Source: a virus
Direction: 5' to 3' (one strand)
IMG/VR virus record: IMGVR_UViG_3300025000_000077
Coordinates: 11,261 to 75,260 of that record
DNA: 64,000 bases
Below are positions 1,040 to 46,497 of the stretch, piece after piece (position 1 is the stretch's first letter; each line of letters starts with the position of its first letter). The notes below the pieces were generated by a model that did not search any database, was not told where the DNA came from, and saw only the letters and a list, made by a program, of their open reading frames with translations. A program made the translations under genes and the position numbers.

Positions 1040-2451
1040 TGAATCGCCTCAAAGAACTTCTTCCAGTGTCCCTCTAGTTCCCCTCGCAGTTCTTCCTCGA
1101 TTTCTTCTCTTGTTTGGAGCAACTGATTAGATTTGATGTCCTCTTTTATTTCATCCTCTGTTTGAACTTCATCTTTAGGTGCTTCCTCTTCGGCTGGCTC
1201 GTTTTCCTGCTGGATACTTGTCTCAGACCACTCCTGCCCGGCTTTCATCAAAAATTTACTATCCGCATCTTCCAGCCCCCAAAATGTCCGAACCTCATTC
1301 ATACTTCCGACAACCGCGCCCTTCTCGGTATAGGCTTTTAGAATTTCAAGCCCCTTCTGGAAGTCCAATTCTTCATTCTTGAATTCCGGCTCAGGGAGTT
1401 TCAATTCAACGGAAAAACCTGAAAAACCGTTCCATTCTAAAATCCTGGTAAAATAAGGTATCCACGGTTTGAGCATCTGTTTTTGTAGTCCAATGATAGC
1501 ACTCTTGAATAAACTTGTCTCGCCAGCAGTCGACCCACCAATAAGAGTTCCATCCTTCGCGGTGAAGTCTTTTGAGAAAATAATACTCAGGATAAGTTTA
1601 GTGAGTTCGTTTATGGTATCAAGAGCAATCCCGGAAACAGGCCCGTCCAGTTCAATAGGCTCCATATCCGGGCCAATCGTAAAATAAGTATTTCTGTTAT
1701 AATTTTTGAGGATATTATTTGAATAATTCCAGTTCGAGGTTTTCCCATCCGACAGCATCCCGGGCTTATTGATCCTCATGAAAAGCACGTTAGCCCGGAG
1801 ATTCGCCTGCATGAGCCCATCCCAAGCCATGCCCATTTTTGGAATCAGCTTGTACACAGGAGTTAAAATAGGCACACCATCAACATTATAAGAATAGATA
1901 TGCGATTTAAAATGATGACAGGGTTCTATTTCAATCGTTCCGCCCTGCTGATCCTGCCAGTAATGGATAATACCATCGGCTTCACGGACAATCCCTCGTA
2001 GGATTTTTCCATAAACACTATCGGTTCCGTAATTTCCAGCCGTTCCAAAAGTTTCAGGTGGTAAATCTCTGATCTCAGTTACCTGGATTTTTCCATCTAC
2101 TTCTTCGATTGTATCTGAGAATATGAATGCAGGCCAGAATATCCGAGCATTAGCCGATTTATACAGGACGTCCTCGAATTCAATGTCCTGCAACATGATC
2201 CTGAACCACCCGGCTATATCTTCTCTGGAGTTTCCCCTCTGGTCCAGGATATTACAGATGAAAGGACCCTGAAAAATTAAATTTAAGATGTTGTTGGCTA
2301 CCATCACAGCATAAATATCAGATCTGTATTTGTTGATTTTTTCAACGTCGAGTTCTCCCACGTCCCACGGGTTGCCCCCGTCAAAATATGTTAGTATATA
2401 ATCTTGACCTGTGGCTTTAGATAATACAGGTTTAGCTCCGTTCTTAGTCAT
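1036..2451 (-). CDS. Portal protein
   Basis: 471 aa. C-terminal pattern (RILEWNGF...SMNEVRTFWGLE plus acidic tail) is typical of portals. Adjacent to head genes. Confidence 0.75.
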   Translation of the reverse strand: MTKNGAKPVLSKATGQDYILTYFDGGNPWDVGELDVEKINKYRSDIYAVMVANNILNLIFQGPFICNILDQRGNSREDIAGWFRIMLQDIEFEDVLYKSANARIFWPAFIFSDTIEEVDGKIQVTEIRDLPPETFGTAGNYGTDSVYGKILRGIVREADGIIHYWQDQQGGTIEIEPCHHFKSHIYSYNVDGVPILTPVYKLIPKMGMAWDGLMQANLRANVLFMRINKPGMLSDGKTSNWNYSNNILKNYNRNTYFTIGPDMEPIELDGPVSGIALDTINELTKLILSIIFSKDFTAKDGTLIGGSTAGETSLFKSAIIGLQKQMLKPWIPYFTRILEWNGFSGFSVELKLPEPEFKNEELDFQKGLEILKAYTEKGAVVGSMNEVRTFWGLEDADSKFLMKAGQEWSETSIQQENEPAEEEAPKDEVQTEDEIKEDIKSNQLLQTREEIEEELRGELEGHWKKFFEAIQ

Positions 2452-2624
2452 ATGTATAAAATACGGTGAGCTAATATAAAAAAGATTTTAGAAAAGTAAT
2501 CACATAGCGGAGCTTTACATCTCTTTAAAGTAATTCGTATAATCAAATAAATATAATGTTACGAAGTAACACGAATCTAAACACAACAGCCAAAACTTAA
2601 TATATCTGTACGACTTATATTTTA
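2452..2624. promoter_or_regulatory. Divergent promoter region (portal versus head operon)
   Basis: TATA-like TTTTTATATT (minus, ~2473-2482) and TTAATATA (plus, ~2597-2604), each ~25 nt before an ATG, suggesting leaderless transcripts. Imperfect inverted repeat TTCGTA...TACGAA between them. Confidence 0.55.
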
Positions 2625-3686
2625 ATGCGCGAATTTTTTACAGAACGGAGCTACCCTTTGAAAAACGTTCATGAAGCTATCTTGGAACGCCTAGACTGGA
2701 CTCAAAAAAAGGATGGGTTTACACATTACTATCCAGTTTCCGAGTTCCAAAAGGCACTCCCCACTTTTGAAAATATTCCCGTTATTTATGCCGCGCGCCA
2801 TCCTCCTCTTGGAGTCCGAGGAAAGAACCTCGAAGATGTGCTGAGAGAAGTCGACGGCACGCTCGCGGGATACACGGAAAACGTTTTAATTAATTCTGCA
2901 GGCTCTCCGAAGTTAAAAGCTCTGTTACAAATTACTAACGAAGATGTTGAAGCCAGAATCCAGGCTGGAAAAATCTCAATATCTCCCTCTTTTTCTCACA
3001 ATCAAATTTTAAACGGTCCCCTTGAAAACATCACCGGTGACCACGTTTTACTTTATGATAGTGATCTTGGTATCCCTCAGGGAGATGCCACCGCTATCAT
3101 TTGCAATCAAGATTCCACGAATTTCACTCTAAATCATGGAATAGGCTATTTTGAAGGAGTCAATATGACAGGCGAAATAAAAACAATCGACATGGACCTC
3201 TACAACGACCTCCTAAGCCTGAAAAATAATCAGGCGGTCATAGTAGACAATGAAAAAACTATCCTGAAGCTCAATCAGGATCTCGAAAAGAAGGACGATT
3301 CCATCCTGAAACTTAATCAGGATCTCACCGCAGAAAAGGAAACAGTCCTCAAACTGAATCAGGCACTTGAAGAAACCAAAAAGCAGGTTTCCGCGCTTGA
3401 AACTCAGATCAAGGAAGACGCTGAAAAAGTCTTCAAACAGAATCAAGATTCTTTTTGGACTGAATTGCCAGAGGGCATTAAAGATCAGTTCAAAGAAAGG
3501 AAGGAAGAACTGTATTCGGTTACCACTGCCCTGAAACTCAACCAGGATATTAATAAATCTCTCCTGAAAATGGAAAAGCCTGACCTACACAAGGCAACCG
3601 GCGAACAGGCAACCCCCGACATGAAACAGAATCAGGATACCAAAGAAGCTGAAGAAGCGTGGGATGCCACAGAGGAGCGGATCTAA
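2625..3686 (+). CDS. Capsid maturation protease-scaffold fusion (alternative start TTG 2658)
   Basis: N-terminal HPP...SISPSF...DHVLL domain. C-terminal coiled coil with repeated LKLNQ. Lies before the decoration and capsid genes. Confidence 0.7.
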   Translation: MREFFTERSYPLKNVHEAILERLDWTQKKDGFTHYYPVSEFQKALPTFENIPVIYAARHPPLGVRGKNLEDVLREVDGTLAGYTENVLINSAGSPKLKALLQITNEDVEARIQAGKISISPSFSHNQILNGPLENITGDHVLLYDSDLGIPQGDATAIICNQDSTNFTLNHGIGYFEGVNMTGEIKTIDMDLYNDLLSLKNNQAVIVDNEKTILKLNQDLEKKDDSILKLNQDLTAEKETVLKLNQALEETKKQVSALETQIKEDAEKVFKQNQDSFWTELPEGIKDQFKERKEELYSVTTALKLNQDINKSLLKMEKPDLHKATGEQATPDMKQNQDTKEAEEAWDATEERI

Positions 3687-4309
3687 TGACCACTTGTGCA
3701 GCAGCAGACTTCACTAAAGTAGGCGGTGTAACCCGCACTTGCTGGCTAGACGAAGGTGCAATTACTGTAGGCACAGGCTACGGGCTAGGTGGTGGCTCCG
3801 GTCCAGTAAGAACATTCGCGGCTGAAATTACACAGGGGATGGTCGTCGTTGTTTCTGTCGATGTGGCTAACACGTGGGCCAATACCAACGGGAATATCCT
3901 CGTAACAAGAATCGCAAACTCTGATGATCTTGTATGGGGGGTTGTGGTCTCTGAACCATCAGAAGGCGATATGGAAAACAGACCTGCAATATCAGGAGAT
4001 GCTGATACCATCGCTAAGAGACTCGCAGGTAAATTCCTGAGAGCTGCTACAGTTTGGTTCCCGAATGTCACAGCCATGACGAAAGCGACTCTCGTAACCG
4101 CAAACGCCGGAAATGTAACACCCGGAACTCTTGAAATCCTCAAACTCGATGTATCTCAATGTATTGCGGGGGCCGGTATTTTTGTTAACGATCTTGCGAA
4201 CTCTGGCTCAAAAACCATCTGTTCTATGCATTACCAGGCTAAGGCATCCGGGGTAACTGTACCTATCATGCTCGCAATGCTCGGGGGAACCACAGCAGCA
4301 CAGACTTAA
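3686..4309 (+). CDS. Head decoration/cement protein
   Basis: Gly/Ala/Thr-rich beta protein between scaffold and MCP. ATG overlaps the upstream TAA. Confidence 0.55.
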   Translation: MTTCAAADFTKVGGVTRTCWLDEGAITVGTGYGLGGGSGPVRTFAAEITQGMVVVVSVDVANTWANTNGNILVTRIANSDDLVWGVVVSEPSEGDMENRPAISGDADTIAKRLAGKFLRAATVWFPNVTAMTKATLVTANAGNVTPGTLEILKLDVSQCIAGAGIFVNDLANSGSKTICSMHYQAKASGVTVPIMLAMLGGTTAAQT

Positions 4310-4324
4310 CGGAGTTGATAAAAA

Positions 4325-12974: not shown

Positions 12975-13625
12975 ATGAACCAAATTGTAGGAACCTCTAA
13001 AAAACACACATTCAAAGCATATGACACTCTCGGAGCAGAGGTCACGACCCTTACAGATCCAGTGGTAAAATATAGAATAGATGGAGGAGATAAAACAACT
13101 CTCTCCACACCCACAATCTCAGCTTATGATTCTGATATGCGGGATTTTCTAATTACTGTACCGGATACACTGGCGGCAAATCCATATGTTACCATTTCGC
13201 TTTCTATCACTGCGACAGAAGGGGCCGCTGATATCCTAATAGACGTTTTTCCTCTCTTAACACTTGCCGCAATTAATGCAGAGGTAGACACCGCCCTTTC
13301 TGATTTTGATACCGCAACCCCGATAGCAAAAACGTCAGAGCTCTCAGGGTACAATACGGAAAATGTAATCCCTCGCGGTTATTATGCTCTCGATGTTACT
13401 GCAAAAACAATCACGCTTTCGAGTCCTTATAATACTTTAACAGTTGAGCAGATCCTCAGAATAAAAGATCTCACTACTAATTATATAATTTACGACTGCG
13501 AGGATTCAAAATATTCAACCCTCCCGATCTCAATAACATCCGGTGTTCTAACATACACAGCACCAGCAAGGGACGCAGCAGATAACGATGCACTCCAGAT
13601 ATTCTTTAATGCGGAGCTAGCATGA
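12975..13625 (+). CDS. Virion structural protein
   Basis: GGAG RBS. C-terminal domain paralogous to 5803..6150. Confidence 0.5.
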   Translation: MNQIVGTSKKHTFKAYDTLGAEVTTLTDPVVKYRIDGGDKTTLSTPTISAYDSDMRDFLITVPDTLAANPYVTISLSITATEGAADILIDVFPLLTLAAINAEVDTALSDFDTATPIAKTSELSGYNTENVIPRGYYALDVTAKTITLSSPYNTLTVEQILRIKDLTTNYIIYDCEDSKYSTLPISITSGVLTYTAPARDAADNDALQIFFNAELA

Positions 13626-15103: not shown

Positions 15104-15131
15104 AATAAAAAAAAGAACGGAGCTAAAAAAA

Positions 15132-32947: not shown

Positions 32948-32964
32948 TACTATTTTATGTTCTA

Positions 32965-32986
32965 CCCCTATATATTATTTTGGTAT
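32965..32986 (-). promoter_or_regulatory. BRE/TATA-like promoter for the putative sRNA
   Basis: Minus strand reads CCAAAATAATATATAGGGG, centred ~26 nt from 32947. Confidence 0.5.
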
Positions 32987-34118: not shown

Positions 34119-34119
34119 G

Positions 34120-34275
34120 TTAATTAGCTCCGTTCTGGATCTGATCTAATAATTCCTCATTCTCTGTTTTCAGTCTCTCTAATTCTATTTTGAGCTGTTC
34201 AATTTCCTCGTCTTTTTCATCCAGTTCGCTCTCAAGATCACTGAGCATGTCTATTATTTTAGATATTTGCACCAT
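34120..34275 (-). CDS. 51-aa coiled-coil protein (not in ORF track)
   Basis: MVQISKIIDMLSDLESELDEKDEEIEQLKIELERLK..., preceded by GAACGGAGCTA. Confidence 0.65.
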   Translation of the reverse strand: MVQISKIIDMLSDLESELDEKDEEIEQLKIELERLKTENEELLDQIQNGAN

Positions 34276-34291
34276 TGTTATAGCTCCGTTC

Positions 34292-35068
34292 TTATTTTCT
34301 CCTTATCCCTAATGTTCGCTCATAATCCTCAAATCTCGACTTTATGATTTCTTTTCGGTCATCTGATCGGATTACTACACCCTCGGCTAACCCACTGTGA
34401 CCATTTATGCCCGCATGTGTTGTCCTGTACGACTGTAAAAAATCATATGTTTCTTCGATGCCTGTCGGGATATCGCGCCCGTATAGGTTCCCGCAAAAGG
34501 GTACTTGTTCGAGATTGAAACGTATACAAAACTCAGACCGGCCTTCTGTGTTAAAAAACGACTGCCCGCCATTGTCTCTCCAATTTGCGATTTGTTCACG
34601 AGGCATTTTAAGAAGTGATATATATTCAATTGGGTTTATATACATCACATCAAAAACTCTAACATCGTAGGTTTTCGAGTCAGTGTACTGTTTTGTAGCC
34701 TGGAGTTTACCGCCGTACAACTCCGAAAATATTGTATAAATGCCTTTTGGGATATTGTTCTGTATATCAATAGATATTTTTTTGCAGTCGGTTAGAGAAT
34801 TGTCCACGATGTCAAGGGATGGATTTATTATCCTGTCTCCTTCAGCGTGGAGCAATTCTTCCCGTGATCCGATCACGTAATCGCAATAAGATGAATTTAT
34901 AAAAATCTTTCTCGTGTTTGTCCCATCTATTTTTTCAGATACGTGATATATCCTATCTGGATCGAGTGTGACTGATAATTCTGGCTGTAACCTGCCCCGG
35001 TTGCCCATTTTGTGATATGTTTTTATTTCCGGGTATTTAGTCATCGAATTTAGTTTGTTAAAATCCAT
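34292..35068 (-). CDS. ATP-dependent RNA ligase (Rnl2-like)
   Basis: Nucleotidyltransferase motifs EKIDGTN, ELYG, FDV, EGVV, K.R. Start set by the motif at 35074-35084. Confidence 0.85.
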   Translation of the reverse strand: MDFNKLNSMTKYPEIKTYHKMGNRGRLQPELSVTLDPDRIYHVSEKIDGTNTRKIFINSSYCDYVIGSREELLHAEGDRIINPSLDIVDNSLTDCKKISIDIQNNIPKGIYTIFSELYGGKLQATKQYTDSKTYDVRVFDVMYINPIEYISLLKMPREQIANWRDNGGQSFFNTEGRSEFCIRFNLEQVPFCGNLYGRDIPTGIEETYDFLQSYRTTHAGINGHSGLAEGVVIRSDDRKEIIKSRFEDYERTLGIRRK

Positions 35069-35243
35069 TGTTATAGCTCCGTCCATATACTCTAATTTTA
35101 AAATTGACAACTGTTAAACGATCATTTAAATGATCAATTTTCCTTGAGTCCCTTTCACTCTGCAAACTTTTGAGAATCGCTGCCTTCTCGTCGATTAGAT
35201 ATTGTTTCCTAAGTGGGATCTCAACGCATTGCAATTTATTCAC
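35058..35243 (-). CDS. Hypothetical protein
   Basis: Coupled to neighbours. Confidence 0.45.
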   Translation of the reverse strand: MNKLQCVEIPLRKQYLIDEKAAILKSLQSERDSRKIDHLNDRLTVVNFKIRVYGRSYNNGF

Positions 35244-35804
35244 TCCCTACAAAGTAGGCCCGCCCGCTTTCAAGCATCTCAAACCATGCCCTTGAATCTA
35301 CAAAATACTTCATATCCCCGGATGTAGCCGGACGATATTTACCGGTTGAGTTTTCGAGGTCTTCTGCGAGGAGGGGACGTTTTGAGAACTCCTCTATGTA
35401 TAGGTTTCCTGATTTGATCAGTGCCCACATTACCCGGATACAGTGGCTCAGAATACCACCATCCCGAGATAAGCTTCTGATTTTGAATACCGCAGGCACA
35501 GAGGCAATTCCTGCCCGAATAACGTGTCATACATGATTGAGCAATGATCACAGGATAATTCGTTGCATGAGACTGTAGGGAGTATCAGAGAGGCTATTAC
35601 CGGGAGTTCCATCAAGCTCTCACCTTCGTTTTACATCTTCCCTTCTTGGACGATGTGAATATTACCCATATTGAATTGAAATACATCATTGTTTTTTGTT
35701 TTCGGGCAGCCATCTTCAAAACACCCTTACCCTAAGTTTCTTTTTGATACCACATGCCCGGTATCTTCTCTCTGCAAGTCGGCGGCCAATGAGGTTTGTA
35801 GGGA

Positions 35805-35957
35805 TCATGCGCTGATCCCTCTTAGGTATATAGTATCTACAGCGCATTTGTCGCCGTCATCAAATTTAACAAGGGTTTCGTCTTCGTTTCCCTGTAGAAC
35901 AGTACCGCATGTTTTCATCTTTCTGAATTGTACTCTGGTTCCAATTTTGAAACTCAT
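35805..35957 (-). CDS. Small SH3/Tudor-like protein
   Basis: MSFKIGTRVQF...GTV...LVKFDDG; preceded by GAACGGAGCTA. Confidence 0.55.
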   Translation of the reverse strand: MSFKIGTRVQFRKMKTCGTVLQGNEDETLVKFDDGDKCAVDTIYLRGISA

Positions 35958-36119
35958 TTTCATAGCTCCGTTCTTTTTGTGAGGATCACGTTTTTCTATA
36001 CTAATACTACACACTTATGACATATAAACTTTACTATTAATCGATTATTAATGGGTTGTTGGAAGATTTACAGTTGATTATCAATAGATTTATATGTGAT
36101 AAAAGCATATAGGATACAT

Positions 36120-36293
36120 ATGGCAGCGATGGATAAACAGATAGTTGTCAGTGATTTTGTTGACGAGTATCTAAAAAACATGAAGGACGACGAAAGTCAT
36201 TCGAACATTGATTCAGTAATAAGAACACTGATTCATGAAAGTGAAGCGTATAGAATGATGAAACCGAAGAGAAAAGCGAGGAAACAAGAATGA
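36120..36293 (+). CDS. Ribbon-helix-helix-like DNA-binding protein
   Basis: KQIVVSDFVDEYLKNMK...SNIDSVIRTLI; TATA box ~25 nt upstream. Confidence 0.55.
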   Translation: MAAMDKQIVVSDFVDEYLKNMKDDESHSNIDSVIRTLIHESEAYRMMKPKRKARKQE

Positions 36294-36586
36294 AAAATGA
36301 AAACAACACACTTACTGCTTGCAAGCCAGATGATCAAACTGAATACATAAACAAAATAATAGGGAACTTTGAATATATTAAAAAAGATATTAACAAAGTA
36401 CAGAAATTGTTGGGTGATTCTCCACAGAATAAATTAAGAAGCTTTGAAAATATCTCGAAATCCAGATTATATGCTAAAGAGATAAGGGAATGTGCAGATT
36501 GGATTATTAAGCAGACTGTACAGCTTGAAGAAGATATAATTATATGGGGAGATTCGAGGAATGAGAATCTCACGGACTCAACCTAA
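36290..36586 (+). CDS. Hypothetical helical protein
   Basis: ATGA overlap with the upstream gene. Confidence 0.45.
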   Translation: MKNENNTLTACKPDDQTEYINKIIGNFEYIKKDINKVQKLLGDSPQNKLRSFENISKSRLYAKEIRECADWIIKQTVQLEEDIIIWGDSRNENLTDST

Positions 36587-36629
36587 AACATATGTGGTAT
36601 AAATTAAAAGTTGAACGGAGCAAACAATT

Positions 36630-36785
36630 ATGAAAGTCGCATATCTCAGAAAAGCAAACCCAGACGCCGTAAAAAGAATAACATCCTATCCGATCCAAAA
36701 GCACGGCAATCTATTTTTCGAGGGATTATTTATCTCCGCGCTGATTGCCGACCCACTCAGAATGAATCTAATAGAGGCGGTTTGA
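36630..36785 (+). CDS. 51-aa hypothetical protein (not in ORF track)
   Basis: MKVAYLRKANPDAVKRITSYPIQK..., preceded by GAACGGAGCAA. Confidence 0.55.
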   Translation: MKVAYLRKANPDAVKRITSYPIQKHGNLFFEGLFISALIADPLRMNLIEAV

Positions 36786-36921
36786 ATGCCCGCTGAGGAT
36801 TCTGATTTCTGGAATAATCCTGAATACTGTTTTTTCAGACCCGTTGGGTTATGTGAACATCCAGAAACAAGGGCGATGGAGAGTGTAATAAGAGAAATTG
36901 TCCATTTGAGGATGGGATATA

Positions 36922-37347
36922 ATGACTGAAATTAGAGTTTTAGCAGTCAGGCAACCCTGGGCAAGTCTCATTGTAGAGGGTTTAAAAACAATTGAAGTGA
37001 GAAGCAAACCTACGAATATTCGTGAGAGGGTGGCGATTTATGCGAGCCGTAACTACAACAGAGAAGATTTCCTAAAGTTGCGGGAAAATCCAAATTATAT
37101 TATGAGATCATGGGATTTTGGAAAGATTTTAGGAACTGTTGAAATTGTTGCTTCGTCTGGTTGCAACGATGAAGTTGAATACGCACTGAATAAAAGAGAA
37201 CATTCAGCACCAGATGAGTATTTCAATGAAGGAAAAACCTATTTTTGGCATTTAAGAAGACCTGTTAAATTCGAAACACCGATTCCCTACAAACCACCAA
37301 AGGGCGCGGTTGTGTGGTCAAAAACAGAACTACCGGAGGGATATTAA
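36922..37347 (+). CDS. ASCH domain protein
   Basis: VRQPWASLIVEGLKTIEVRS signature. Confidence 0.9.
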   Translation: MTEIRVLAVRQPWASLIVEGLKTIEVRSKPTNIRERVAIYASRNYNREDFLKLRENPNYIMRSWDFGKILGTVEIVASSGCNDEVEYALNKREHSAPDEYFNEGKTYFWHLRRPVKFETPIPYKPPKGAVVWSKTELPEGY

Positions 37348-37589
37348 TGCCAGCATTTGAATTAGAAACTGAACTTTTTGATTATTATAGAAAACATGCC
37401 GGGAAACTAGGATGTAAACAGTGCTTTGACGAAAAGAAGGACGAGATTAGGGCAATGAACCGAGAGGGGGCGGACGGGGGCCCTAACTGTCTATGTAAGG
37501 TCGATACCCCCTGCCCATGTGATGACGTTGAAATAGATCTCCTCGTAGATGGGATATGTTATTGTGAGATTTTCGTGTTGGATTGCTAA
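37347..37589 (+). CDS. Ferredoxin:thioredoxin reductase catalytic-subunit-like Fe-S protein
   Basis: CLC-x5-CPC-x12-CYC.IF, like the CPC/CPC/CHC triad. Confidence 0.6.
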   Translation: MPAFELETELFDYYRKHAGKLGCKQCFDEKKDEIRAMNREGADGGPNCLCKVDTPCPCDDVEIDLLVDGICYCEIFVLDC

Positions 37590-37641
37590 GAATTTTGAAA
37601 TTACCGAATGATTTTTTTGAAAACTGAACGGAGCTATTGAT

Positions 37642-38166
37642 ATGATAATTGCATTCGAAGGCGCGGACAAATTAGGAAAAACAACTCAGGCTAAATTATT
37701 GGCCGAGAAATTGAACTGTAAATATATTAAATTCCCGAATGAAGAATTATACAGTGGGAAAATAATAAGACAGATTATTAATAAAGAACTTCCATTCGAG
37801 CCGGTTTCGTTTCAAGCGTTGCAGACTATGAACCGGTTAGAAACCTTTGAAAATATCGATTTCGAACAGTTGTATATATTCGACAGATACAAACTATCCG
37901 GGGTTGTTTACGGGCTGGCTGACGGCCTCCCGGAAGAATGGATCAGAGAAGTTTGTGATTTGTTGCCGGACCCTGATTACACGATCGTTTTTACCGGCGA
38001 ATCGTATGGAAAGGACTCGGATATCTACGGTGAAAAACAGTATAAGATCAGACAGTTGTATCATAATGAAATTGTTGTATATAGATATCCGTGGATTGAT
38101 GTGAGTGGCCGAACCATTGAAGAGGTACATGGTGAAATTTTAAAGATGGTGGAGGGGGTATTATGA
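37642..38166 (+). CDS. tmk: Thymidylate kinase
   Basis: IAFEGADKLGKTTQ P-loop, KFP, FDRY, PDPD. Confidence 0.92.
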   Translation: MIIAFEGADKLGKTTQAKLLAEKLNCKYIKFPNEELYSGKIIRQIINKELPFEPVSFQALQTMNRLETFENIDFEQLYIFDRYKLSGVVYGLADGLPEEWIREVCDLLPDPDYTIVFTGESYGKDSDIYGEKQYKIRQLYHNEIVVYRYPWIDVSGRTIEEVHGEILKMVEGVL

Positions 38167-38894
38167 CCCTCACGATAATCAAAACTTTTAGTTCAGATGA
38201 TATTGATCAACTTAACGAAGAATTGTGGAGAACGATATATCAAAAGGGGAATCCTCTCGTATTCGGGAAGCAGGACGAAACTAAAGCCGCTAGAGAAGTT
38301 TTTGCAATAATTCAGTTGTATGGGAAGGCTCTTGAGAAATTATACAATGGTGAGCTTCCTAAAGGGTGGATGTTTGGGAAAGAAGCCAATAAGATTTATA
38401 TTGAGATGCTGGAAGATCCTGATAGAGGAGAACAGCCTTATACTTACGGTGAACGGCTTCATGGATACACTACTTGGAGTGAAACATCTGAATATGTTTC
38501 TTACGTGGATCAGATGGATGAATGCAAGATAGAGCTTGAAGAAACTATTAAATCAGGGATTCAAAATAATAGAATTTGTGGAGTTATTTGGAATCCGCTT
38601 GATATCTTTCTGAAAAATCCGCCTTGTTTTAATTGGTTCCAGCTCCGCACATCAGAAACTAATAAAGTATCTCTCCGTGTTCTATTTAGATCACACGACT
38701 ACGGAAACGCTAATTTTGCGAATTTTGGAGCCATTATAAGAGCATTCCAGGATGAAGTAATCAGGCCAGCCGGGGGAATCCTCGAAGAGTTGATTTGTGT
38801 TTCAACGTCTGCCCATTTGTATAATAATGATTTAGATATGGTTGAAAATCTCATTGGGAAAGTTCCTGAGCATATCAGGAGGCTCTTAAAATGA
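38163..38894 (+). CDS. thyA: Archaeal-type thymidylate synthase
   Basis: YTYGERL, PPCF catalytic Cys, FRSHD...N, SAHLY. Confidence 0.88.
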   Translation: MTLTIIKTFSSDDIDQLNEELWRTIYQKGNPLVFGKQDETKAAREVFAIIQLYGKALEKLYNGELPKGWMFGKEANKIYIEMLEDPDRGEQPYTYGERLHGYTTWSETSEYVSYVDQMDECKIELEETIKSGIQNNRICGVIWNPLDIFLKNPPCFNWFQLRTSETNKVSLRVLFRSHDYGNANFANFGAIIRAFQDEVIRPAGGILEELICVSTSAHLYNNDLDMVENLIGKVPEHIRRLLK

Positions 38895-39076
38895 TCCCAC
38901 ATCTCGAAACTCAGATACTCCACTACAAAGGGCTACGGGAAACCGGAACACAAAAACAATGCAAATGTGAGAGGTGCGGGACGTGGGGGCAGTGGCGGGG
39001 ATACAGAGAGGAATTTTTAGAAGGGCGGCAGGGCCATGTTAGATGGGTATGTGCGGATTGCTTGGAGGTTGAGTGA
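38891..39076 (+). CDS. Small Zn-finger protein
   Basis: CERC...CADC. Confidence 0.5.
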   Translation: MIPHLETQILHYKGLRETGTQKQCKCERCGTWGQWRGYREEFLEGRQGHVRWVCADCLEVE

Positions 39077-39951
39077 TGCCGACTGAAATTCCCACATTCG
39101 AGGACATTGTAATAAAACATCGTTTGATCCAATTTTCGAACGGAGATAAAGAAGAACTTGAAGAACTCTTAAGCATTTATTACGATGAGAAATGCACTAT
39201 CAAAGTGGAAATCCCCGGCAATGAAAACAGGAAAGCTTATTCCGAGGACGAAATAGGTTTTAAACCCGTACCGATGCCGAAAAAGTCCACAAAAAAAGGA
39301 AAAGAGGAAGAATCACAGACAGGTGACTATTCATTCCAATTTTCAAATGAGACAGGCATTGAAAAACGTTTGAAAATCCGGTTTGAGAGGAAGAGCGTAG
39401 AGGATTTTTGCGGGACTGTAATAAATAATTGGGGTCGGTTTTTGGCGGAATTGGAAAGAGCCAGATTCAATCCTGAAATTGAAGATTTTAGAATAGTGGT
39501 GGAGGGCGATAGGCTTCAGGCCCTTACGTTTTTTTTCCCATATCCTAAAATATGCAAATATTGTGAGAGTATCGGGTACAGGATGGAAAATAAAAAAAGG
39601 AAGTATTATTGTCGGATAACCGGAAAGGATGTAAATTACAATTCGAATTGTAGGCAGTTGAGAGTCAAGAAGCGGAGTCCAAAACAGATCGCTCAACTGA
39701 TATCATTCAAAAGAAAGAAAATCGGGCTGATCGAGGCGATGGGCTTTCCTATTGAATGGTGTGGGAGCCGGGGGGAGGCAGCGACCCACATAAATGTGGC
39801 GGTGAAACAGTATTTTATAGTTCATTATGAGGAGATTTTAGGTTTGAATGCGGGTTTTAAGTTGGTTGGGGAGGATAAGGACACTTTGACTTTTAAGGCG
39901 GATGGGACTATATTTCGGGTGTTGAAAACAGCAGTGGACGTCCTAGCATGA
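39073..39951 (+). CDS. ERCC4/XPF-family nuclease with Cys4 insertion
   Basis: TGDY...FERKSVEDF...ELER...IVVEG. Confidence 0.8.
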   Translation: MMPTEIPTFEDIVIKHRLIQFSNGDKEELEELLSIYYDEKCTIKVEIPGNENRKAYSEDEIGFKPVPMPKKSTKKGKEEESQTGDYSFQFSNETGIEKRLKIRFERKSVEDFCGTVINNWGRFLAELERARFNPEIEDFRIVVEGDRLQALTFFFPYPKICKYCESIGYRMENKKRKYYCRITGKDVNYNSNCRQLRVKKRSPKQIAQLISFKRKKIGLIEAMGFPIEWCGSRGEAATHINVAVKQYFIVHYEEILGLNAGFKLVGEDKDTLTFKADGTIFRVLKTAVDVLA

Positions 39952-40295
39952 AAGGCAAAAACCACGAAAGAGCCGGCCTCATTTTTCTCTTTTTTTCTTC
40001 TATTTTTTTGGCTGCACAGCATTCTATTCGAGTAGTGCTCATATGGGCTGTGTTTGTTTATATTTTTACAAAGTATATAACCCCGGATCTCGACACGAAT
40101 TCAAGATCACGAAAACGACTCGGCGCGCTTGGGTGGGTAATAGACAGGTGCTTTGGACATCGGGGCTGGCTGCATAGATACTGGTTATGGCCTTTATTGT
40201 TCATTCCTTTGTATTTGGCGTTCGGGTGGGTATCCCTTGGCGGGCTGTCTGCTGTTTATTTGCATCTGATTTGTGATGGGTTGAGTCCGTTTTAA
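39948..40295 (+). CDS. Membrane metal-binding hydrolase (DUF2227/YdjM-like)
   Basis: GKNH, PDLD, HRGWLH, HLICD plus TM helices. Confidence 0.75.
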   Translation: MKGKNHERAGLIFLFFSSIFLAAQHSIRVVLIWAVFVYIFTKYITPDLDTNSRSRKRLGALGWVIDRCFGHRGWLHRYWLWPLLFIPLYLAFGWVSLGGLSAVYLHLICDGLSPF

Positions 40296-40307
40296 TTTTT
40301 TTGTTTG

Positions 40308-40350
40308 TTTATTTGCGTTAAGTATATATAGTATCGATGTGTAGTTAGTA
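40308..40350 (+). promoter_or_regulatory. Duplicated promoter, copy 1
   Basis: TTTATTTGCGTTAAGTATATATAGTATCGATGTGTAGTTAGTA, nearly identical to 41022-41064. Confidence 0.7.
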
Positions 40351-40395
40351 ACTAGAAGCACATTACAAGGACTGACACATAAGAGGGTTTGAAAC

Positions 40396-40623
40396 ATGCA
40401 GAAAATTGAAAGAGATACAATTCACAGAATCGCCGATGAACTCACTATAAGAAAATACGATTCCGCAGTCGAGCTTTCAAAGAGTTACTATTTTAGCAAG
40501 TGGGCTTCTGAATTCTCCCAGGGAGACGAAGATATAGAACAGAGGCTCTTTGATGAGAATGATGAAATTACTAAATTTGTGTACAAATTGGCAAAAAAAT
40601 ACGGGATTGAAATAGAAGAATGA
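40396..40623 (+). CDS. Hypothetical protein
   Basis: RBS and promoter upstream. Confidence 0.5.
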   Translation: MQKIERDTIHRIADELTIRKYDSAVELSKSYYFSKWASEFSQGDEDIEQRLFDENDEITKFVYKLAKKYGIEIEE

Positions 40624-40638
40624 GGAGTTGAAAAGAAA

Positions 40639-40836
40639 ATGAACCACAGGGAACTGCATAAAAAAGTCAGAGCCATGAAAAACACTAAACTTGTCGAAAG
40701 AAACGAAGAACTGTATGGATTAATCATAAAACTTGTAGTTGATGTAGTCGAAGAAAAGGACGATGCCGGTAGGAAAGAACATTTAGAAAAAGACCTTGAA
40801 GAATATAGGACATGTGAAAATGCGAGGGGGAATTGA
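40639..40836 (+). CDS. Hypothetical protein
   Basis: GAGGAG RBS. Confidence 0.45.
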   Translation: MNHRELHKKVRAMKNTKLVERNEELYGLIIKLVVDVVEEKDDAGRKEHLEKDLEEYRTCENARGN

Positions 40837-40840
40837 ATAA

Positions 40841-41008
40841 ATGAAACCTAGAGAATATCCACTTCATAAAACGAAACCTAGAAACATTACTATAAAAAAT
40901 GTAATTGCTGAAACGGCTGGGAAAATAACTGAGAGAGGTTTTGTTTATGTAACAACTGATCCCGATTTGATCGGAAAGAAGGTTACTATCCTAATTGAAG
41001 AGTTTTAA
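40841..41008 (+). CDS. AbrB/DUF2080-like small DNA-binding protein (not in ORF track)
   Basis: ...GKITERGFVYVTTDPDLIGKKVTILIEEF. Confidence 0.55.
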   Translation: MKPREYPLHKTKPRNITIKNVIAETAGKITERGFVYVTTDPDLIGKKVTILIEEF

Positions 41009-41021
41009 TTTTTTTCTTCTT

Positions 41022-41064
41022 TTTATTTGCGTTAAGTATTTATAGTTTCGATGTATATTTAGTA
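41022..41064 (+). promoter_or_regulatory. Duplicated promoter, copy 2
   Basis: TTTATTTGCGTTAAGTATTTATAGTTTCGATGTATATTTAGTA. Confidence 0.7.
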
Positions 41065-41081
41065 TATAGAGGTACGATAAA

Positions 41082-41282
41082 ATGGCAACAAAAGACAAAA
41101 AAATCCAAGCTGCAATAAAAAGCGCAAAAAGCAAAAATGAAGTTTACCAAATCCTGGAACATTTCAGACTCCCCGCCAGTGAAGAACGGAAAATAGTAAA
41201 TGCCTGGCAGAATGTGCAAGAAATGCTTATAAGACATGAACAGGGGGCTTATTATACCCCCTCAACCCAGGCGGTGGCCTGA
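41082..41282 (+). CDS. Hypothetical protein
   Basis: GAGGT RBS after promoter copy 2. Confidence 0.5.
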   Translation: MATKDKKIQAAIKSAKSKNEVYQILEHFRLPASEERKIVNAWQNVQEMLIRHEQGAYYTPSTQAVA

Positions 41283-41870
41283 ATGGTGACTCGAAAGGAG
41301 GCTAGAATGTGGGGGTGTTTGAACTGCACGAAGGATGTTTTTGTGGCAGTGGAGATATGTCAGGCTTTCGGGCTTGGGAAGGAAGAAGAGGAGAGAGCTC
41401 TGAGCTTGTGGGATAGTAAGAGGAGAATTGTGAGGAATTCAAGGAGGGCTGTAGTTTGAAATCGTGTGGTGGTTGCCTTCATTGGGTCCGGGTTGATGTC
41501 CCTGAGCAAATAATGGGGTACTGTCCGAAGCAGGGAAAGAGACGGCATCGGGATGGGGATTGTGATAAGTACGAGGTGCGTTTAGAATGACTGAATGCGA
41601 AGGTGACTGTGAAAACTGCCCTTATGGGCTTCAAAGCCAGATGGAATGTCAGGATTTATATGAGGAATGGTTAGCGGAACGAAGGAAACTATAAACGAAT
41701 ATGAATAACTGTCCTTTTTGTGATGATTCCTGGTTTTTTCATTCGGGGGAGGTATGTGTTTTCATTTATACATTTTTATTTTATTTTTTCGATGGTTAGG
41801 AAGTTTTATATACACGGTGGTACATAGTAAGTACTGTAATGGTACAGTGTACCGGTGGAAAGGTGAAAGA

Positions 41871-42029
41871 ATGTCGAGATCTGAAAAGAAAACAATAACC
41901 GTAGATAAAGAAGACCACGAAAAAATAAGATCCATTGCTCTCAGAAATGGAATGGATATCAAGGATATGGTAATCTTCACATTTAAAAAAACGTTTCCTG
42001 GTGATTTTCCCGAAAAGGTTATTGCATAA
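41871..42029 (+). CDS. Ribbon-helix-helix regulator
   Basis: KKTITVDKEDHEKIRSIALRNGMDIKDMV; AGGTGA RBS. Confidence 0.65.
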   Translation: MSRSEKKTITVDKEDHEKIRSIALRNGMDIKDMVIFTFKKTFPGDFPEKVIA

Positions 42030-42074
42030 ATTATAGTATATACTATAATAATTAATTATAGTAAGTACTATAAA
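42030..42074. repeat. Two tandem 20-bp palindromes ATTATAGTA-NN-TACTATAAW
   Basis: At 42030-42049 and 42055-42074. Confidence 0.8.
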
Positions 42075-42113
42075 AAATAAATATTCAAATAACGTTGGAA
42101 CGGAGCTAATAAA

Positions 42114-42623
42114 ATGGGAATAGACGAAGTTAACAGCACCCGTGGAAGAAAGAAAAAGAACACCGGGCGCGAAACACAACATGCGATATATATTGATCCG
42201 GATGTATGGGAAGCGGCTGGCCATCTGCCGGAATCCAGACCCGATATCATCAGGCAAGCTTTTCTTGATAAAATTTCTTATTACCAGAGTGACCTCCCTA
42301 AATTAAAGTGGCAATTGGAGGACGTTCGGAAACAGATTCAATCGTTTTTAGCTACAGAGGCAGTTATAGTTTCTCGGATTGAACAACTCGAATCGAAAGC
42401 CATTTTTGATGTAAGTGAACGAGAGAAAGACGCCGAGTTGAAGGAAACTGCGATAAAGGAAACCCTAACGATGTGCAGGGCGTTCAAAAAGAGCATGGGT
42501 TATCATCATTATTCGAAACTATCCGAGTTGTCAGGGTTTGAGGCCGCCAGGATAGAGGTTTTTTTGAAGGATTCGAAGTTCAGGCCATCCGAAGAGGCAG
42601 TGCGTGTTTTTTATACGGGGTGA
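42114..42623 (+). CDS. Replication-operon protein (RHH-like N-terminus plus coiled coil)
   Basis: Directly upstream of MCM; preceded by GAACGGAGCTA. Confidence 0.6.
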   Translation: MGIDEVNSTRGRKKKNTGRETQHAIYIDPDVWEAAGHLPESRPDIIRQAFLDKISYYQSDLPKLKWQLEDVRKQIQSFLATEAVIVSRIEQLESKAIFDVSEREKDAELKETAIKETLTMCRAFKKSMGYHHYSKLSELSGFEAARIEVFLKDSKFRPSEEAVRVFYTG

Positions 42624-42627
42624 GCTG

Positions 42628-44706
42628 ATGGACAACTACCACGACACAAAAGAAAAACTCAAAACTTTTTTTAGTCCTGGTGCATATGTTAACACGGGCA
42701 AAAACTGTAAAGATTTGAAAGCGAAGCAGTATTGGGACGACCTGCTGGCTTTAAGTTCGAAATACCCATATGAAAAAAGTTTATATGTTGAATACAGGCA
42801 CATTGAATATTTTAATAGAGAAATAGCTGACCGTTTGATATCAGCCCCGGATGAGTGGTTCGTGGCTGCAACTGATGCTATAGCTGAGATGTCTTTTCCT
42901 ACGGTGGATATGCCTAATATAAATGTCCGTGTTATTGGGTTGCCTCTTGATTTCGAAGTCGGGATATCAAAACTGAGGGGGGGACATTTGGATCGTTTCT
43001 TGGCTATCCGGTGTGTAATTTCAAAGGCTTCTGAAGTGCGCCCTGGTTATGAAGTGGCTGCTTACCAGTGCATGAGGTGCGGGCATGTTACAAAAGTTGA
43101 ACAGTTGAAATACACTGACATGCGGCAAGAGCCGTATTCAGGCTGTGAAAATGACACATGCGGGAAGAAGGGCCCTTATAAAATATCAGAAGAAGAGTCT
43201 GTAAAATTTGATCACCAGTATTTGAAAATCCAGGAACCAATCGAAAACCTCCGAGGTAAACAACCTGAATTTCTTAATGTATCATGCGCCGATGAAATAG
43301 CTGGAAGGTCGAACCCGGGTGATAAAGTAATCATAACTGGAATTTTAAAGGGGAAGCCAAAGACTGTAAAAGAGGGGGTAACTAAATATCTGGATTTCGT
43401 TTTTGTTGCCAATTCCATTGAAAAATCTGATACTGATTATGAAAATCTTGAGATCCTGCCTGAAGAGGAAGCGCAGTTCAGACAGTGGGCAAGTGAGGGA
43501 GTATTAAAAGAAAAAATATTGAGGTCCATAGCTCCTACGATATTTGGTCTGGAAGAAGTCAAATTGGGTTTGGCCCTGCAGATGGTCGGTGGTGTGCCAA
43601 TTGATTTCGAAGACGGGACACGGAAAAGAGGAGATATCCATATAATGTTAGTCGGTGATCCCGGCGTAGCAAAAAGTCAGTTATTAGAGTTCATTGCTAA
43701 GTATTCCCCGCGCGCCGTTAGTTTTTCAGGAAAATCAACCAGTGAGGCGGGCCTAACAGGTGGGGCCGTGAAAGATGAATTAGATGGTAAATGGTGGATT
43801 CAGCCGGGAGCCCTAACGCTTGCAGACGGTGGTGTATGTTGCGCTGACGAACTTGATAAGATGAAGACGGGGCAATTAGGATCAATCCACGAAGCACTTG
43901 AGCAACAGATGGTCCATATTAATAAAGTTGTTAAGGCTGACCTGTGGACCCGGACTGCTTTCTTAGGAGCTGCAAATCCCAAATACGGGCGTTATGATAA
44001 ATATACTCCAATAGCGGAACAGATCACACACGGAGATGCATTTATTTCGAGGATGGACTTGCTTTTTGTCCTGCTTGATACTCCGAATGAAGCGACGGAT
44101 AGGAGGCTCGCAAAGCATATTTTAGGGACTCTACGCGGGAAGGCAGACATATCAGAGCCGGGGATGAATCTTGAGCTTCTTAGGAAGTGTGTGGCTTATA
44201 TTAAAACTCATGTGTTCCCGGTACTTACGGACGAATCCGAGGAAATGATAATTAACTTCTTTGTAGGGACCCGGGTTGCAGCTAATGGACGGACTGACAC
44301 TGTTCCAATTACCGCGAGAACACTTGAAGCAGCTTTCCGGCTTGCGACTGCAAACGCCAGGATGAGACTATCAGATACTATAACTGAAGAAGACGCCGAA
44401 GCTGCTGTGAAATTATTATACTCTAATTTAAGGAGTGTGGGAATTGACCCGGAAACGGGGGAACTGGACGCAAACGTTATCGCGTGCGGGACTTCCATGA
44501 GTCAAGCGAAAAAACTCAGGAAATTATGTACTATAATTAAATCACTTTCCGAGAGAGACACGGCGAAATATCAGGCTGCTCGAAAAGAGGAAATTATAGA
44601 TAAGTGCATTGGAGAAGGGATTAAAGAACCTGAGAATTTGCTCAAAAAACTGAAGCAGCAGGGAGACATCTTCAGCCCGGAAGAAGGATATTATAAAGTC
44701 ATGTAA
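42628..44706 (+). CDS. mcm: MCM replicative helicase
   Basis: Zn finger CMRC...C..C, GDPGVAKS, CADELDKM, GAANPKYGRY, SRMD, ITARTLE. Confidence 0.97.
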   Translation: MDNYHDTKEKLKTFFSPGAYVNTGKNCKDLKAKQYWDDLLALSSKYPYEKSLYVEYRHIEYFNREIADRLISAPDEWFVAATDAIAEMSFPTVDMPNINVRVIGLPLDFEVGISKLRGGHLDRFLAIRCVISKASEVRPGYEVAAYQCMRCGHVTKVEQLKYTDMRQEPYSGCENDTCGKKGPYKISEEESVKFDHQYLKIQEPIENLRGKQPEFLNVSCADEIAGRSNPGDKVIITGILKGKPKTVKEGVTKYLDFVFVANSIEKSDTDYENLEILPEEEAQFRQWASEGVLKEKILRSIAPTIFGLEEVKLGLALQMVGGVPIDFEDGTRKRGDIHIMLVGDPGVAKSQLLEFIAKYSPRAVSFSGKSTSEAGLTGGAVKDELDGKWWIQPGALTLADGGVCCADELDKMKTGQLGSIHEALEQQMVHINKVVKADLWTRTAFLGAANPKYGRYDKYTPIAEQITHGDAFISRMDLLFVLLDTPNEATDRRLAKHILGTLRGKADISEPGMNLELLRKCVAYIKTHVFPVLTDESEEMIINFFVGTRVAANGRTDTVPITARTLEAAFRLATANARMRLSDTITEEDAEAAVKLLYSNLRSVGIDPETGELDANVIACGTSMSQAKKLRKLCTIIKSLSERDTAKYQAARKEEIIDKCIGEGIKEPENLLKKLKQQGDIFSPEEGYYKVM

Positions 44707-44752
44707 GGTACATTTCCAGTGGAGTTATATTATATTATATTACATTGCTTTC

Positions 44753-44873
44753 TAATTAATTATAGTTATAGGTATTACTATAATTAATTAATATACATCC
44801 TATAGATAGTGTTTTTTCACTTAATTTTTTTCTTTAGTAAGTTGAGTACATTAATTATAGTATGTACTATAAT
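44753..44873. repeat. AT-rich palindromes downstream of mcm (candidate origin/operator)
   Basis: 13-bp inverted repeat at 44753-44765/44778-44790, and ATTATAGTA-TG-TACTATAAT at 44854-44873. Confidence 0.7.
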
Positions 44874-44903
44874 CAATTAAAAACCGATGAACGGAGCTAC
44901 AAT

Positions 44904-45047
44904 ATGTATAGAAATCATGGAAAACACAATCCTGAAAAATACTATAATAAATGTGAGTTTACCGAATCTTTTACGAAAATCCCGGCTTTTGTCATAGTCT
45001 GCAATGCTGACGGTCCAATCAAGGAGGACGAACATGCAACTCTCTGA
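44904..45047 (+). CDS. Small hypothetical protein
   Basis: Preceded by GAACGGAGCTA. Confidence 0.5.
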   Translation: MYRNHGKHNPEKYYNKCEFTESFTKIPAFVIVCNADGPIKEDEHATL

Positions 45048-45399
45048 TTCTGTATCCCTCCTCCTGCCTGTCCCTTCCCGCGATCCAGTCACATTCACGG
45101 AACCCCCACAAGATCCTGAATTCTTCCTGGATCTAAAAAAACACTTAAACAAACAACCGGACGCAATCAAAGAACGAATCGAATTTCATAAGAAATATCC
45201 ATTCTGGTCCATATATCGAGTGCGGGATGAATTCGCTAAATCCTACTCGGAAACATATCTCAACGATGTGATGCATTTTGCTCGCTCAAATCCTCATATG
45301 AACGCAGTAGAAGCGGCTCAGGCGTTTTGTTCGAAGTACAGGGGGTATCTTATTGTTTATGGCGTTGAACTCACAGAAAGAGCGTTCACGAGGTTGTAA
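45034..45399 (+). CDS. Hypothetical protein
   Basis: AGGAGG RBS before MQLSDS. Confidence 0.55.
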   Translation: MQLSDSVSLLLPVPSRDPVTFTEPPQDPEFFLDLKKHLNKQPDAIKERIEFHKKYPFWSIYRVRDEFAKSYSETYLNDVMHFARSNPHMNAVEAAQAFCSKYRGYLIVYGVELTERAFTRL

Positions 45400-45725
45400 T
45401 AATGATTCTTAAAGCCCTTCTAAAACTCCTTAAAATAATAATCCTCCATCCAAGACGCTGTGAAAACTGCCAATATTGGAGATCACCGAAGTGTTCACAG
45501 CCGTTATACTATAACGTGGTCCCCCTCTCAAAGTGCGGCAAGTGGGCACGGAGAAGCCGCTGAGTTAATTTTTACTTGAAAATGGTATGAATGTATTCGG
45601 GGTTATTTGATACGGTTAAAACAGCTTAGAATCAATATTACTTTTATTTGAGTTCATTACGTAATTGTATTTATATGATTACAGTAAGTTATTTATAGTA
45701 TTACGTAGTAGTATTAGTATAGAGG

Positions 45726-46055
45726 TTGAAACAGATGGACTACAACGCAACAATGGAAAATGAGATTGTATTGAATGAAGAACTTAGAAATTATGCTTGC
45801 ACTGCTCAACAGAAACACATGACGATTGATATAAAAATAAACGGGCGGTGGAATATGGGGCACGCCTGTATAACTGATAAACTAATACAGTTTAATTATT
45901 CAGCAGGGGGCAAGCATCATTTCTTTACCCCTGAAGGATTCGAGCAGTTTCTTATCAAAATCCCCTCACCTGAATCAATAGAAAGGACGAACTTTAATAT
46001 TTTTCACAGCAGTAAGAAGACAACGGGGCAGCTTCTAAGATGCTCTTCTTATTAA
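45726..46055 (+). CDS. Hypothetical protein
   Basis: TATA box and GAGGT RBS upstream. Confidence 0.45.
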   Translation: MKQMDYNATMENEIVLNEELRNYACTAQQKHMTIDIKINGRWNMGHACITDKLIQFNYSAGGKHHFFTPEGFEQFLIKIPSPESIERTNFNIFHSSKKTTGQLLRCSSY

Positions 46056-46283
46056 TTCTTTTTTTGTCTTAGAGGAACTTGATAAACTATTAAAACATGA
46101 GGTTAATAATGAATAATATTTGGAGAATACTGAGTGCAACTGGCACGGGTATAAGTTTTCAACCAAAAAATTTGATGGAATGTGGATCAATTAGATGCAT
46201 TGACTGCATATATTTTGATATGTGGAGCGAAGAACTACACAAATGCACTTCATATCTTAAGTTTCTAAACGAGGTTAAATAAA

Positions 46284-46469
46284 ATGGTTCCACCGCTAAC
46301 CGAAAAACACACCCTCAAAAAAGGCTATCTCTCGTTCCATGCAACAAAACAAGAACCTCTTATCTACTTCACCGCAAAAGCAGGAAGTAGAGGTAACATT
46401 GGTATGGGTTCATTGAACGAGGGAGAAGAATTTATTATAATTCCGGTGAAATATTTAGGTACAGAATAA
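46284..46469 (+). CDS. AbrB-like small protein
   Basis: KAGSRGNIGMG...EEFIIIPV. Confidence 0.4.
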   Translation: MVPPLTEKHTLKKGYLSFHATKQEPLIYFTAKAGSRGNIGMGSLNEGEEFIIIPVKYLGTE

Positions 46470-46497
46470 TCCTCGTAAAAAGAACGGAGCTAAAACA

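Follow-up and report, generated by a model that had tools for sequence, protein, structure and literature searches.

An 11-nucleotide (nt) motif, GAACGGAGCTA (hereafter, the tag), marks 17 start regions of the virus represented by the IMG/VR record IMGVR_UViG_3300025000_000077, and one further exact copy, at 32886-32896, lies away from starts, in the loop of the strongest hairpin of the genome, where RNA made from the minus strand would display the exact complement of the tag. The stretch analyzed here (the window) is 64,000 nt long and covers bases 11261-75260 of the 75,260-bp record; the coordinates below are those of the window, with negative values to the left of it. In our assessment, the balance of probability tilts slightly toward an antisense small RNA (sRNA) of about 80 nt, encoded at this hairpin, that masks the tagged start regions.

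An exact search recovered all 11 copies of the tag that an earlier note on this DNA had reported in the window, at the same positions and on the same strands. Only 0.05 copies are expected, in line with the previous estimate of far less than one occurrence in 64 kb, so that the exact tag is present about 240-fold above chance, and no shuffled sequence reached 11 copies. With at most one mismatch, 16 sites were found in the window, compared to 0.62 expected, and a word count ranks the 11-mer, with its sub-words, far ahead of every other repeated word of the genome. The variants listed earlier at 4308, 13611, 25051, 35074(-) and 36613 are real, and the suspicion that more copies might exist proved justified: we detected two intragenic copies in the window (24879 and 39138) and, by a search of the whole record, which contains 12 exact copies in total, a twelfth exact copy at -1305 (minus strand; 1,305 nt left of the window) and a start-associated variant at -1989 (minus strand). 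At 15 of the 17 tagged start regions, the motif is in the sense of the gene and ends 4 to 7 nt before an ATG or, in one case (2658), a TTG codon, and at one variant site it ends 2 nt before the start. The proposal that most copies end 4 to 7 nt upstream of a start thus applies to 15 sites and fails for 2433(-), which lies after the ATG of the portal gene at 2451; similarly, the strict sense orientation that had been claimed is seen at the start sites and is broken by 32886(+), which is antisense to both flanking genes. Upstream of the tag, we found no conserved promoter at a fixed distance and no element resembling the extended start-associated sequence (ESAS) that accompanies the start-associated sequence (SAS) of mycobacteriophages; the flanks are merely A-rich.

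The tag is private to the virus rather than a feature of the host. The 3' end of the 16S rRNA of Methanosarcina, the most likely host (see below), reads ...GGAUCACCUCCU and pairs with the GGAG of the tag only (4 nt), as the earlier note had supposed; beyond the 3' tail, no 16S complementarity was detected at up to two mismatches. Other genes of the virus have the ordinary sites that had been noticed before (AGGAGG, GGTGAT or GAGGT), that is, canonical matches of 5 to 7 nt. Because the tag pairs with the 16S rRNA over 4 nt only while these other sites pair over 5 to 7 nt, the flanks of the tag need another reader. The exact tag occurs twice in six Methanosarcina genomes (21.7 Mb), and the pattern GAACGGAGCWA, searched for in 284 Methanosarcinales genomes, is not more common there than a reversed-pattern control, with at most 8 copies per genome. 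Hence the tag is neither common in genomes of the likely host nor fully complementary to the 16S 3' end.

The copy at 32886(+), which we regard as the most telling one, resides in a 650-bp non-coding stretch between two minus-strand genes. Read on the minus strand, it is the antisense of the motif in a hairpin loop and therefore points to an RNA partner. The candidate sRNA would span positions 32948 to 32869 on the minus strand, as delineated by a predicted promoter, predicted ends and fold. A TATA-like sequence, AATAATATATA (32979-32969), lies about 26 nt upstream of it and is followed by about 22 nt and then by hairpin 1 (32950-32924). Hairpin 2 (32916-32873) consists of a perfect, G+C-rich 9-bp stem and a 26-nt loop that contains the anti-motif UAGCUCCGUUC (32896-32886), and is followed by a run of five U residues (32873-32869). 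The predicted fold of the 96-nt stretch around 32886 has an energy of -35.5 kcal/mol (z-score of -4.75), and a terminator-like structure is called on the minus strand only. This is the only strongly structured copy of the tag; the other 11 exact copies fold with -4.5 to -15.5 kcal/mol and z-scores of about 0. Only three hairpins of such strength exist in 75 kb, and the probability that a copy of the tag lands in one of their loops by chance is about 0.005. No Rfam family, including C4 (RF01695), matched the window at the gathering threshold or the region 32700-33100 at an E-value of 1 or less, and no second antisense partner, with G·U pairs allowed, was found in the genome outside the coding regions.

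The loop of hairpin 2 can form 11 to 13 contiguous pairs with 16 of the 17 tagged start sites; among the other 117 start regions, helices of at least 11 pairs are possible in three. The predicted duplexes between the loop and the tagged starts have energies of -20 to -25 kcal/mol, compared to a median of -13 kcal/mol. All three substitutions that fall within the helices (A2>G, A3>G and C9>U) permit wobble pairing, and the changes that would disrupt a helix are located at its ends. The variants keep the length of the helix: the GGACGG variant does so through a G·U pair, as do the variants of the head protein gene and at 13610, the AAACGG variant gains a pair with the next A, and in the GCAA variant four further pairs (AGUU) are added upstream.

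The portal gene departs from the usual arrangement. Motif search, start context and comparison with relatives place its exact tag (2433-2443, minus strand) in codons 3 to 6 (K-N-G-A), at +9 to +19 from the ATG at 2451. The order ATG-N5-tag holds in 10 of 10 sequences (this virus and its relatives), all of which have an identical core, GAACGGAGC, down to its three synonymous positions. A TATA-like sequence, TTTTTTATAT(T/A)A, is located exactly 20 nt before the ATG (-30 to -21) in each of the 10 sequences, and the 20 nt that separate this box from the ATG come in three unrelated versions (window 2452-2500 and loci L134-L142). Because the position of the box corresponds to the archaeal TATA geometry for a transcript that starts at the ATG, the portal mRNA is probably leaderless, while most other genes here use Shine-Dalgarno sites. 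Located past the start codon of an mRNA that probably has no leader, this tag cannot function as a Shine-Dalgarno site; it is nonetheless within the ribosome footprint. A cis hairpin formed by the portal tag and an upstream near-complement was considered and discarded, being weak (z-score of about -1) and having an arm that is not conserved in the relatives. We also rejected, as a general rule, the idea that in leaderless mRNAs the tag separates the TATA box from the point where transcription starts, given that the A-rich tracts adjoin the tag too closely and at variable distances; the leaderless idea is retained solely for the portal gene, in which the TATA box lies upstream of the ATG.

The relatives of the virus are nine metagenomic contigs with portal proteins 72-83% identical to that of the present virus and about 75% DNA identity. 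The core GAACGGAGC is invariant at three orthologous tagged sites (the portal gene, the divergent 342-amino-acid (aa) gene and the DUF1699 gene) as well as at an additional gene, and the flanks diverge. At every such site in the relatives, position 10 of the tag is A (GCAA or GCAC), whereas the same sites in this virus have T; the tags of the relatives accordingly read GAACGGAGCA(A/C). A change in the same direction at several sites suggests concerted evolution with a partner or, alternatively, gene conversion. If the partner is an sRNA, the hairpin loop of the relatives is expected to read UUGCUCCGUUC (or GUGCUCCGUUC). A scan of IMG/VR for the exact tag followed by an ATG yielded single chance matches only. 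The groundwater samples from which this virus originates also contain diverged relatives, represented over positions 30000-48000 in runs X1 and X3 by pieces that are 80-90% identical and often covered more deeply than the virus itself. Modules are replaced between 44831 and 46477, with the right breakpoint 5 nt before a tag.

The other tagged starts of the window are distributed over genes of different functions. On the plus strand, an exact copy (2643-2653) lies 4 nt before TTG 2658 of the 342-aa gene, the first gene of the rightward head operon, with both the TTG and the motif core kept in the loci L136-L138. The major head protein gene (ATG 4325) is preceded by the variant TAACGGAGTTGAT (4307-4319), in which AACGGAG is intact and the 11-mer ends 7 nt before the start (12-bp loop helix including three G·U pairs). 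Another variant, with CGGAGCTA intact (13610-13620), directly precedes ATG 13622 and overlaps the end of the upstream gene (11-bp loop helix with two G·U pairs). The gene for the tail tube protein (PF16461; PHROG major tail protein; ATG 15132) has an exact copy 6 nt upstream (15115-15125), and that for the beta-helix tailspike (ATG 25068) has the variant AAACGGAGCTA 7 nt upstream (25050-25060; 11-bp loop helix through the next A).

Minus-strand sites come next. Exact copies, assigned by motif search and start context, precede ATG 34118 of a 130-aa gene by 6 nt (34125-34135, overlapping the last codons of the upstream gene) and ATG 34275 of a 51-aa coiled-coil protein gene by 5 nt (34281-34291). 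The RNA ligase gene (ATG 35068) carries, 5 nt upstream, the variant GGACGGAGCTA (35074-35084; search with at most one mismatch, and pairing), whose A-to-G change retains a G·U pair with the loop, and motif search placed an exact copy (35963-35973) 5 nt before ATG 35957 of a 50-aa gene, the first of a leftward operon. Back on the plus strand, the variant GAACGGAGCAA (36613-36623) ends 6 nt before ATG 36630 (51 aa), and the upstream AGTT lengthens its loop helix to 13 bp. The remaining starts have exact copies: 37626-37636, 5 nt before the thymidylate kinase ATG 37642, which heads overlapping genes including those for thymidylate synthase and an ERCC4 nuclease (motif search and annotation); 42098-42108, 5 nt before ATG 42114 of a 169-aa gene directly upstream of the MCM helicase, with the strongest predicted duplex of all (-24.8 kcal/mol); 44889-44899, 4 nt before ATG 44904 (47 aa), the first gene past a spacer rich in inverted repeats (motif search); and 46482-46492, 5 nt before ATG 46498 (65 aa), which heads a run that encodes a winged-helix protein and the small and large terminases (motif search and annotation). 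The search with at most one mismatch also yielded the two intragenic plus-strand copies, one at 24879-24889 with no start codon after it, and one at 39138-39148 inside the ERCC4-domain gene, which pairs with the loop over 8 bp only and is probably a chance occurrence.

We propose the following scheme. The 11-mer would serve as a private tag, with GGAG as its minimal ribosome-binding core, on about 17 start regions, and its partner would be a virus-encoded RNA of about 80 nt, transcribed from the minus strand (approximately 32948-32869), the second hairpin of which would display UAGCUCCGUUC in an open 26-nt loop. The resulting helix of 11 to 13 bp between the loop and the mRNA would cover the Shine-Dalgarno region or, in the leaderless portal mRNA, the first codons, and ribosome binding would be blocked. 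Repression, rather than stabilization, would be the most likely outcome, given that the ribosome-binding core, or portal codons 3 to 6, would lie within the duplex. In this way, a single RNA could jointly lower the expression of head, tail, nucleotide-metabolism and replication-operon genes. Many tagged genes are the first in a series of overlapping genes, so that translational coupling might carry the effect on to the genes downstream (from 37642 to 40295, from 42114 to MCM and from 46498 to the terminases).

Several observations weigh against such an antisense RNA. In the predicted fold, a weak inner helix of 4 bp (AACG/CGUU) hides part of the anti-motif, and the promoter call is a TATA-like box of a kind that is common in very A+T-rich sequence such as this. 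The start-associated variant at -1989 pairs with the loop over 9 bp only. No RNA run is present among the sequencing runs that hold the sequence, all four of which are groundwater DNA metagenomes from one study. Scans for the hairpin of the relatives, either by stem and loop or by the loop alone, did not find it and returned only chance matches on unrelated, mostly high-GC contigs, and a repeated-word and tag search of a related element, C111, from a Methanosarcina metagenome-assembled genome (MAG), revealed no comparable tag. Furthermore, whatever is complementary to the minus strand is necessarily identical to the plus strand, and the extension of the match into the flanks would also agree with a more extended binding site for a protein, one copy of which lies on the plus strand. 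The strand-dependent evidence thus consists of the three wobble-compatible changes only, all of which are transitions.

An explanation that we regard as unlikely is that a viral or host protein (a repressor, an enhancer or a site-specific RNase) reads the tag on the mRNA, with the 32886 hairpin being a plus-strand decoy, an autoregulatory site or an unrelated structure. Such a role for a protein is still left open for the Cluster K SAS. The strand-specific, start-tied placement of the tag and the conservation of its flanks beyond what rRNA pairing would require are compatible with a protein reader, the portal copy located after the ATG would suit a binder that occludes the start region, the identity of the flanks to the plus-strand loop copy is equally accommodated, and an ASCH-domain protein along with many small proteins of unknown function is encoded near the densest cluster of tags. 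However, the plus strand at 32886 shows no conspicuous promoter or terminator features, the U-run is present on the minus strand only, both neighboring genes are on the minus strand, all substitutions inside the motif are wobble-compatible, and none of the candidate proteins has a demonstrated link to the tag.

It is improbable, in our estimation, that the tag is a DNA operator of the stoperator type (as in Cluster A phages, such as L5), with a repressor blocking transcription in the short intergenic gaps and GGAG being kept because the gap is shared with the ribosome-binding site. The numerous asymmetric copies are oriented with transcription in both arms and lie in short gaps, with 32886 as the sole exception in orientation; an operator could reside within the start of the portal coding region or away from starts, as at 32886; and the virus encodes a recombinase with a helix-turn-helix (HTH) domain as well as the winged-helix protein. 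Nevertheless, the spacing of 4 to 7 nt at 15 sites is tighter than an operator requires, the 32886 copy opposes local transcription, contradicting the orientation rule, the hairpin around it is left unexplained, and SAS and stoperators have been contrasted along the same lines (Pope et al., PMC3203893). Equally little credence can be given to a favored ribosome-binding cassette that is homogenized by recombination or gene conversion and has no trans partner, the hairpin copy being coincidental: a GGAG core at the ideal distance in A-rich, unstructured surroundings, and the need for high expression of several tagged genes (tail tube, head protein), would suit it, but the tag pairs with the 16S rRNA less strongly than untagged sites of the same genome, the 9-nt core is invariant across diverged relatives even at synonymous positions, the portal copy is downstream of its ATG, and the chance of landing in one of the three strong hairpin loops is as low as given above.

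The host is most likely Methanosarcina, and the virus, a tailed archaeal virus, considering the gene content, the MCM helicase and the at least 12 genes that are shared with C111, a 60-kb contig of the Methanosarcina MAG. The viral MCM is 66% identical to the copy on this contig, and the second, presumably cellular, MCM of the same MAG is 47% identical to the viral one. Virion genes encode a Mu-type portal (the relatives carry PF06074), a lambda-like tail tube, a beta-helix tailspike, a tape-measure protein and small and large terminases; other genes encode a complete archaeal MCM helicase, an ERCC4 nuclease, thymidylate kinase and synthase, an RNA ligase, an ASCH protein and a small serine recombinase. 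Domains related to disaggregatase (PF08480, PF06848) were identified in three proteins, and another protein belongs to the DUF1699 family. Three beta-helix proteins (window 27082-29166; L144 8057-9265, minus strand; window 58930-62394), two of which contain PF06848 or PF08480, were noted; disaggregatase-type beta-helix proteins fit a host with a methanochondroitin coat, such as Methanosarcina. No tRNA was detected by a tRNA scan. GenBank phages gave no match at the DNA level and a single distant match by portal protein (26.5% identical), to a Caudoviricetes record with Methanomicrobiales as the stated host. Protein searches of IMG/VR with the portal, the VirB4/HerA-like protein and MCM found no close relatives, and a portal profile run against GTDB genomes found no provirus.

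Several additional features of the genome deserve mention. The small serine recombinase (resolvase domain and HTH; 31764-32423, minus strand) adjoins the A+T-rich non-coding stretch (32424-33080) that holds the 32886 hairpin. This spacer was considered as an attachment (att) site or host-derived DNA and rejected as such: a comparison with 151 genomes from the family to which the Methanosarcina MAG belongs gave weak A+T-rich matches only and no att-site match. Another strong hairpin (35807-35847), with a perfect 8-bp stem and a 25-nt loop, is located at the 3' end of the tagged 50-aa gene, and its plus-strand loop contains CCCUCU, which resembles an anti-Shine-Dalgarno sequence. The ASCH-domain protein, which has a predicted RNA-binding fold, is encoded at 36922-37347, amid the densest cluster of tagged genes. 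Clusters of the short inverted repeats TATAGTA / TACTATA (42030-42075 and 44776-44870) occupy A+T-rich spacers that flank the 169-aa gene and the MCM operon and are candidate replication-origin or regulator-binding boxes. A block at 52783-62394, which encodes a 945-aa HerA/VirB4-like ATPase, proteins of 293, 361 and 123 aa and a 1154-aa beta-helix protein, is shared with C111 (L125-L127) at 44-79% identity and, judging by this distribution, seems to be a module that moves between elements.

The tag helps to set start codons (TTG 2658 and the ATGs at 35068, 35957 and 44904) and delimits a putatively co-regulated set of genes in a virus that otherwise lacks annotation. To our knowledge, the RNA proposed here would be the first virus-encoded trans-acting regulatory RNA put forward for a methanogen virus. 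With the genetic tools available for Methanosarcina and the sRNAs directed against ribosome-binding sites that are known in this genus, reporter tests are feasible.

Phage small RNAs with exposed loops that pair in trans with short target boxes, including a ribosome-binding site, have precedents in the c4 antisense RNA of the immI loci of P1 and P7 and in the CI RNA of P4. Related phages differ in a few of the nucleotides that determine specificity, and the targets vary in step with them. The c4 system is bacterial and has two boxes in a single operon, whereas here about 17 dispersed genes are tagged and no Rfam C4 match was obtained.

In M. mazei, loop sequences of sRNA154 and sRNA41 mask the ribosome-binding sites of several mRNAs, including sites within polycistronic messages (PMC5867862). 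These RNAs come from the same likely host genus and also have loops complementary to ribosome-binding sites, but they are chromosomal and stress-regulated, pair imperfectly, and have targets without a uniform private tag. The stoperators of Cluster A mycobacteriophages, such as L5, are 13-bp asymmetric repressor sites (PMC3203893) that, like the tag, occur genome-wide in many asymmetric copies oriented with transcription; unlike the tag, they are DNA sites for a repressor protein, with neither a fixed spacing to starts nor a mirrored hairpin copy.

The closest parallel is the SAS of Cluster K mycobacteriophages, a 13-nt asymmetric motif with a GGAG core and a single reverse-oriented copy in K1 phages (Pope et al. 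2011, PMC3203893), the function of which is still described as unknown (PMC11373665, PMC12699233). The likeness to the SAS that was drawn previously extends to asymmetry, the GGAG core, the fixed distance to starts, flanks outside 16S pairing and absence from the likely host, and stops short at the tagged virion genes, the missing ESAS and the archaeal nature of the virus. Specifically, both motifs are short (13 nt there, 11 nt here), precede mostly ATG starts by 3 to 8 nt, are present in 11 to 19 copies per genome, have conserved flanks unable to pair with 16S rRNA, are nearly absent from host genomes, and have one copy in the opposite orientation away from starts. The sequences themselves are unrelated: the consensus GGGATAGGAGCCC is not matched here at up to two mismatches, and only GGAGC is common to both. 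The Cluster K host is a mycobacterium and the present one an archaeon. The SAS is found in the non-structural arm and in gaps of more than 50 bp, whereas in this virus the virion genes (portal, head, tail tube, tailspike) are tagged too, on both strands and in gaps of 1 to 50 nt, often 1 to 30 nt; ESAS precedes about half of the SAS copies, and no ESAS-like inverted repeat is present here.

In the Mycobacterium phage Anaya, we found that the reverse SAS copy (record 59870-59882; L176 34871-34883), located between gp96 and gp97, occupies the 10-nt loop at the apex of a long hairpin formed by the transcribed strand, the same arrangement of a mirrored copy in a hairpin loop as at 32886; the z-score of the Anaya fold is only -1.4, in a G+C-rich sequence. 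Over 15 years, the SAS has been listed for hundreds of mycobacteriophages without a mechanism, and a mirrored hairpin copy offers a concrete, falsifiable partner. That an archaeal virus operates a genome-wide translational switch made of one 80-nt RNA and an 11-nt tag, leaderless mRNA included, and that the same logic arose independently in Cluster K, explaining the SAS puzzle open since 2011, is a tentative proposition to which we assign slightly less than an even chance. If it is true, private ribosome-site tags read by a single small RNA would be a general viral strategy across domains.

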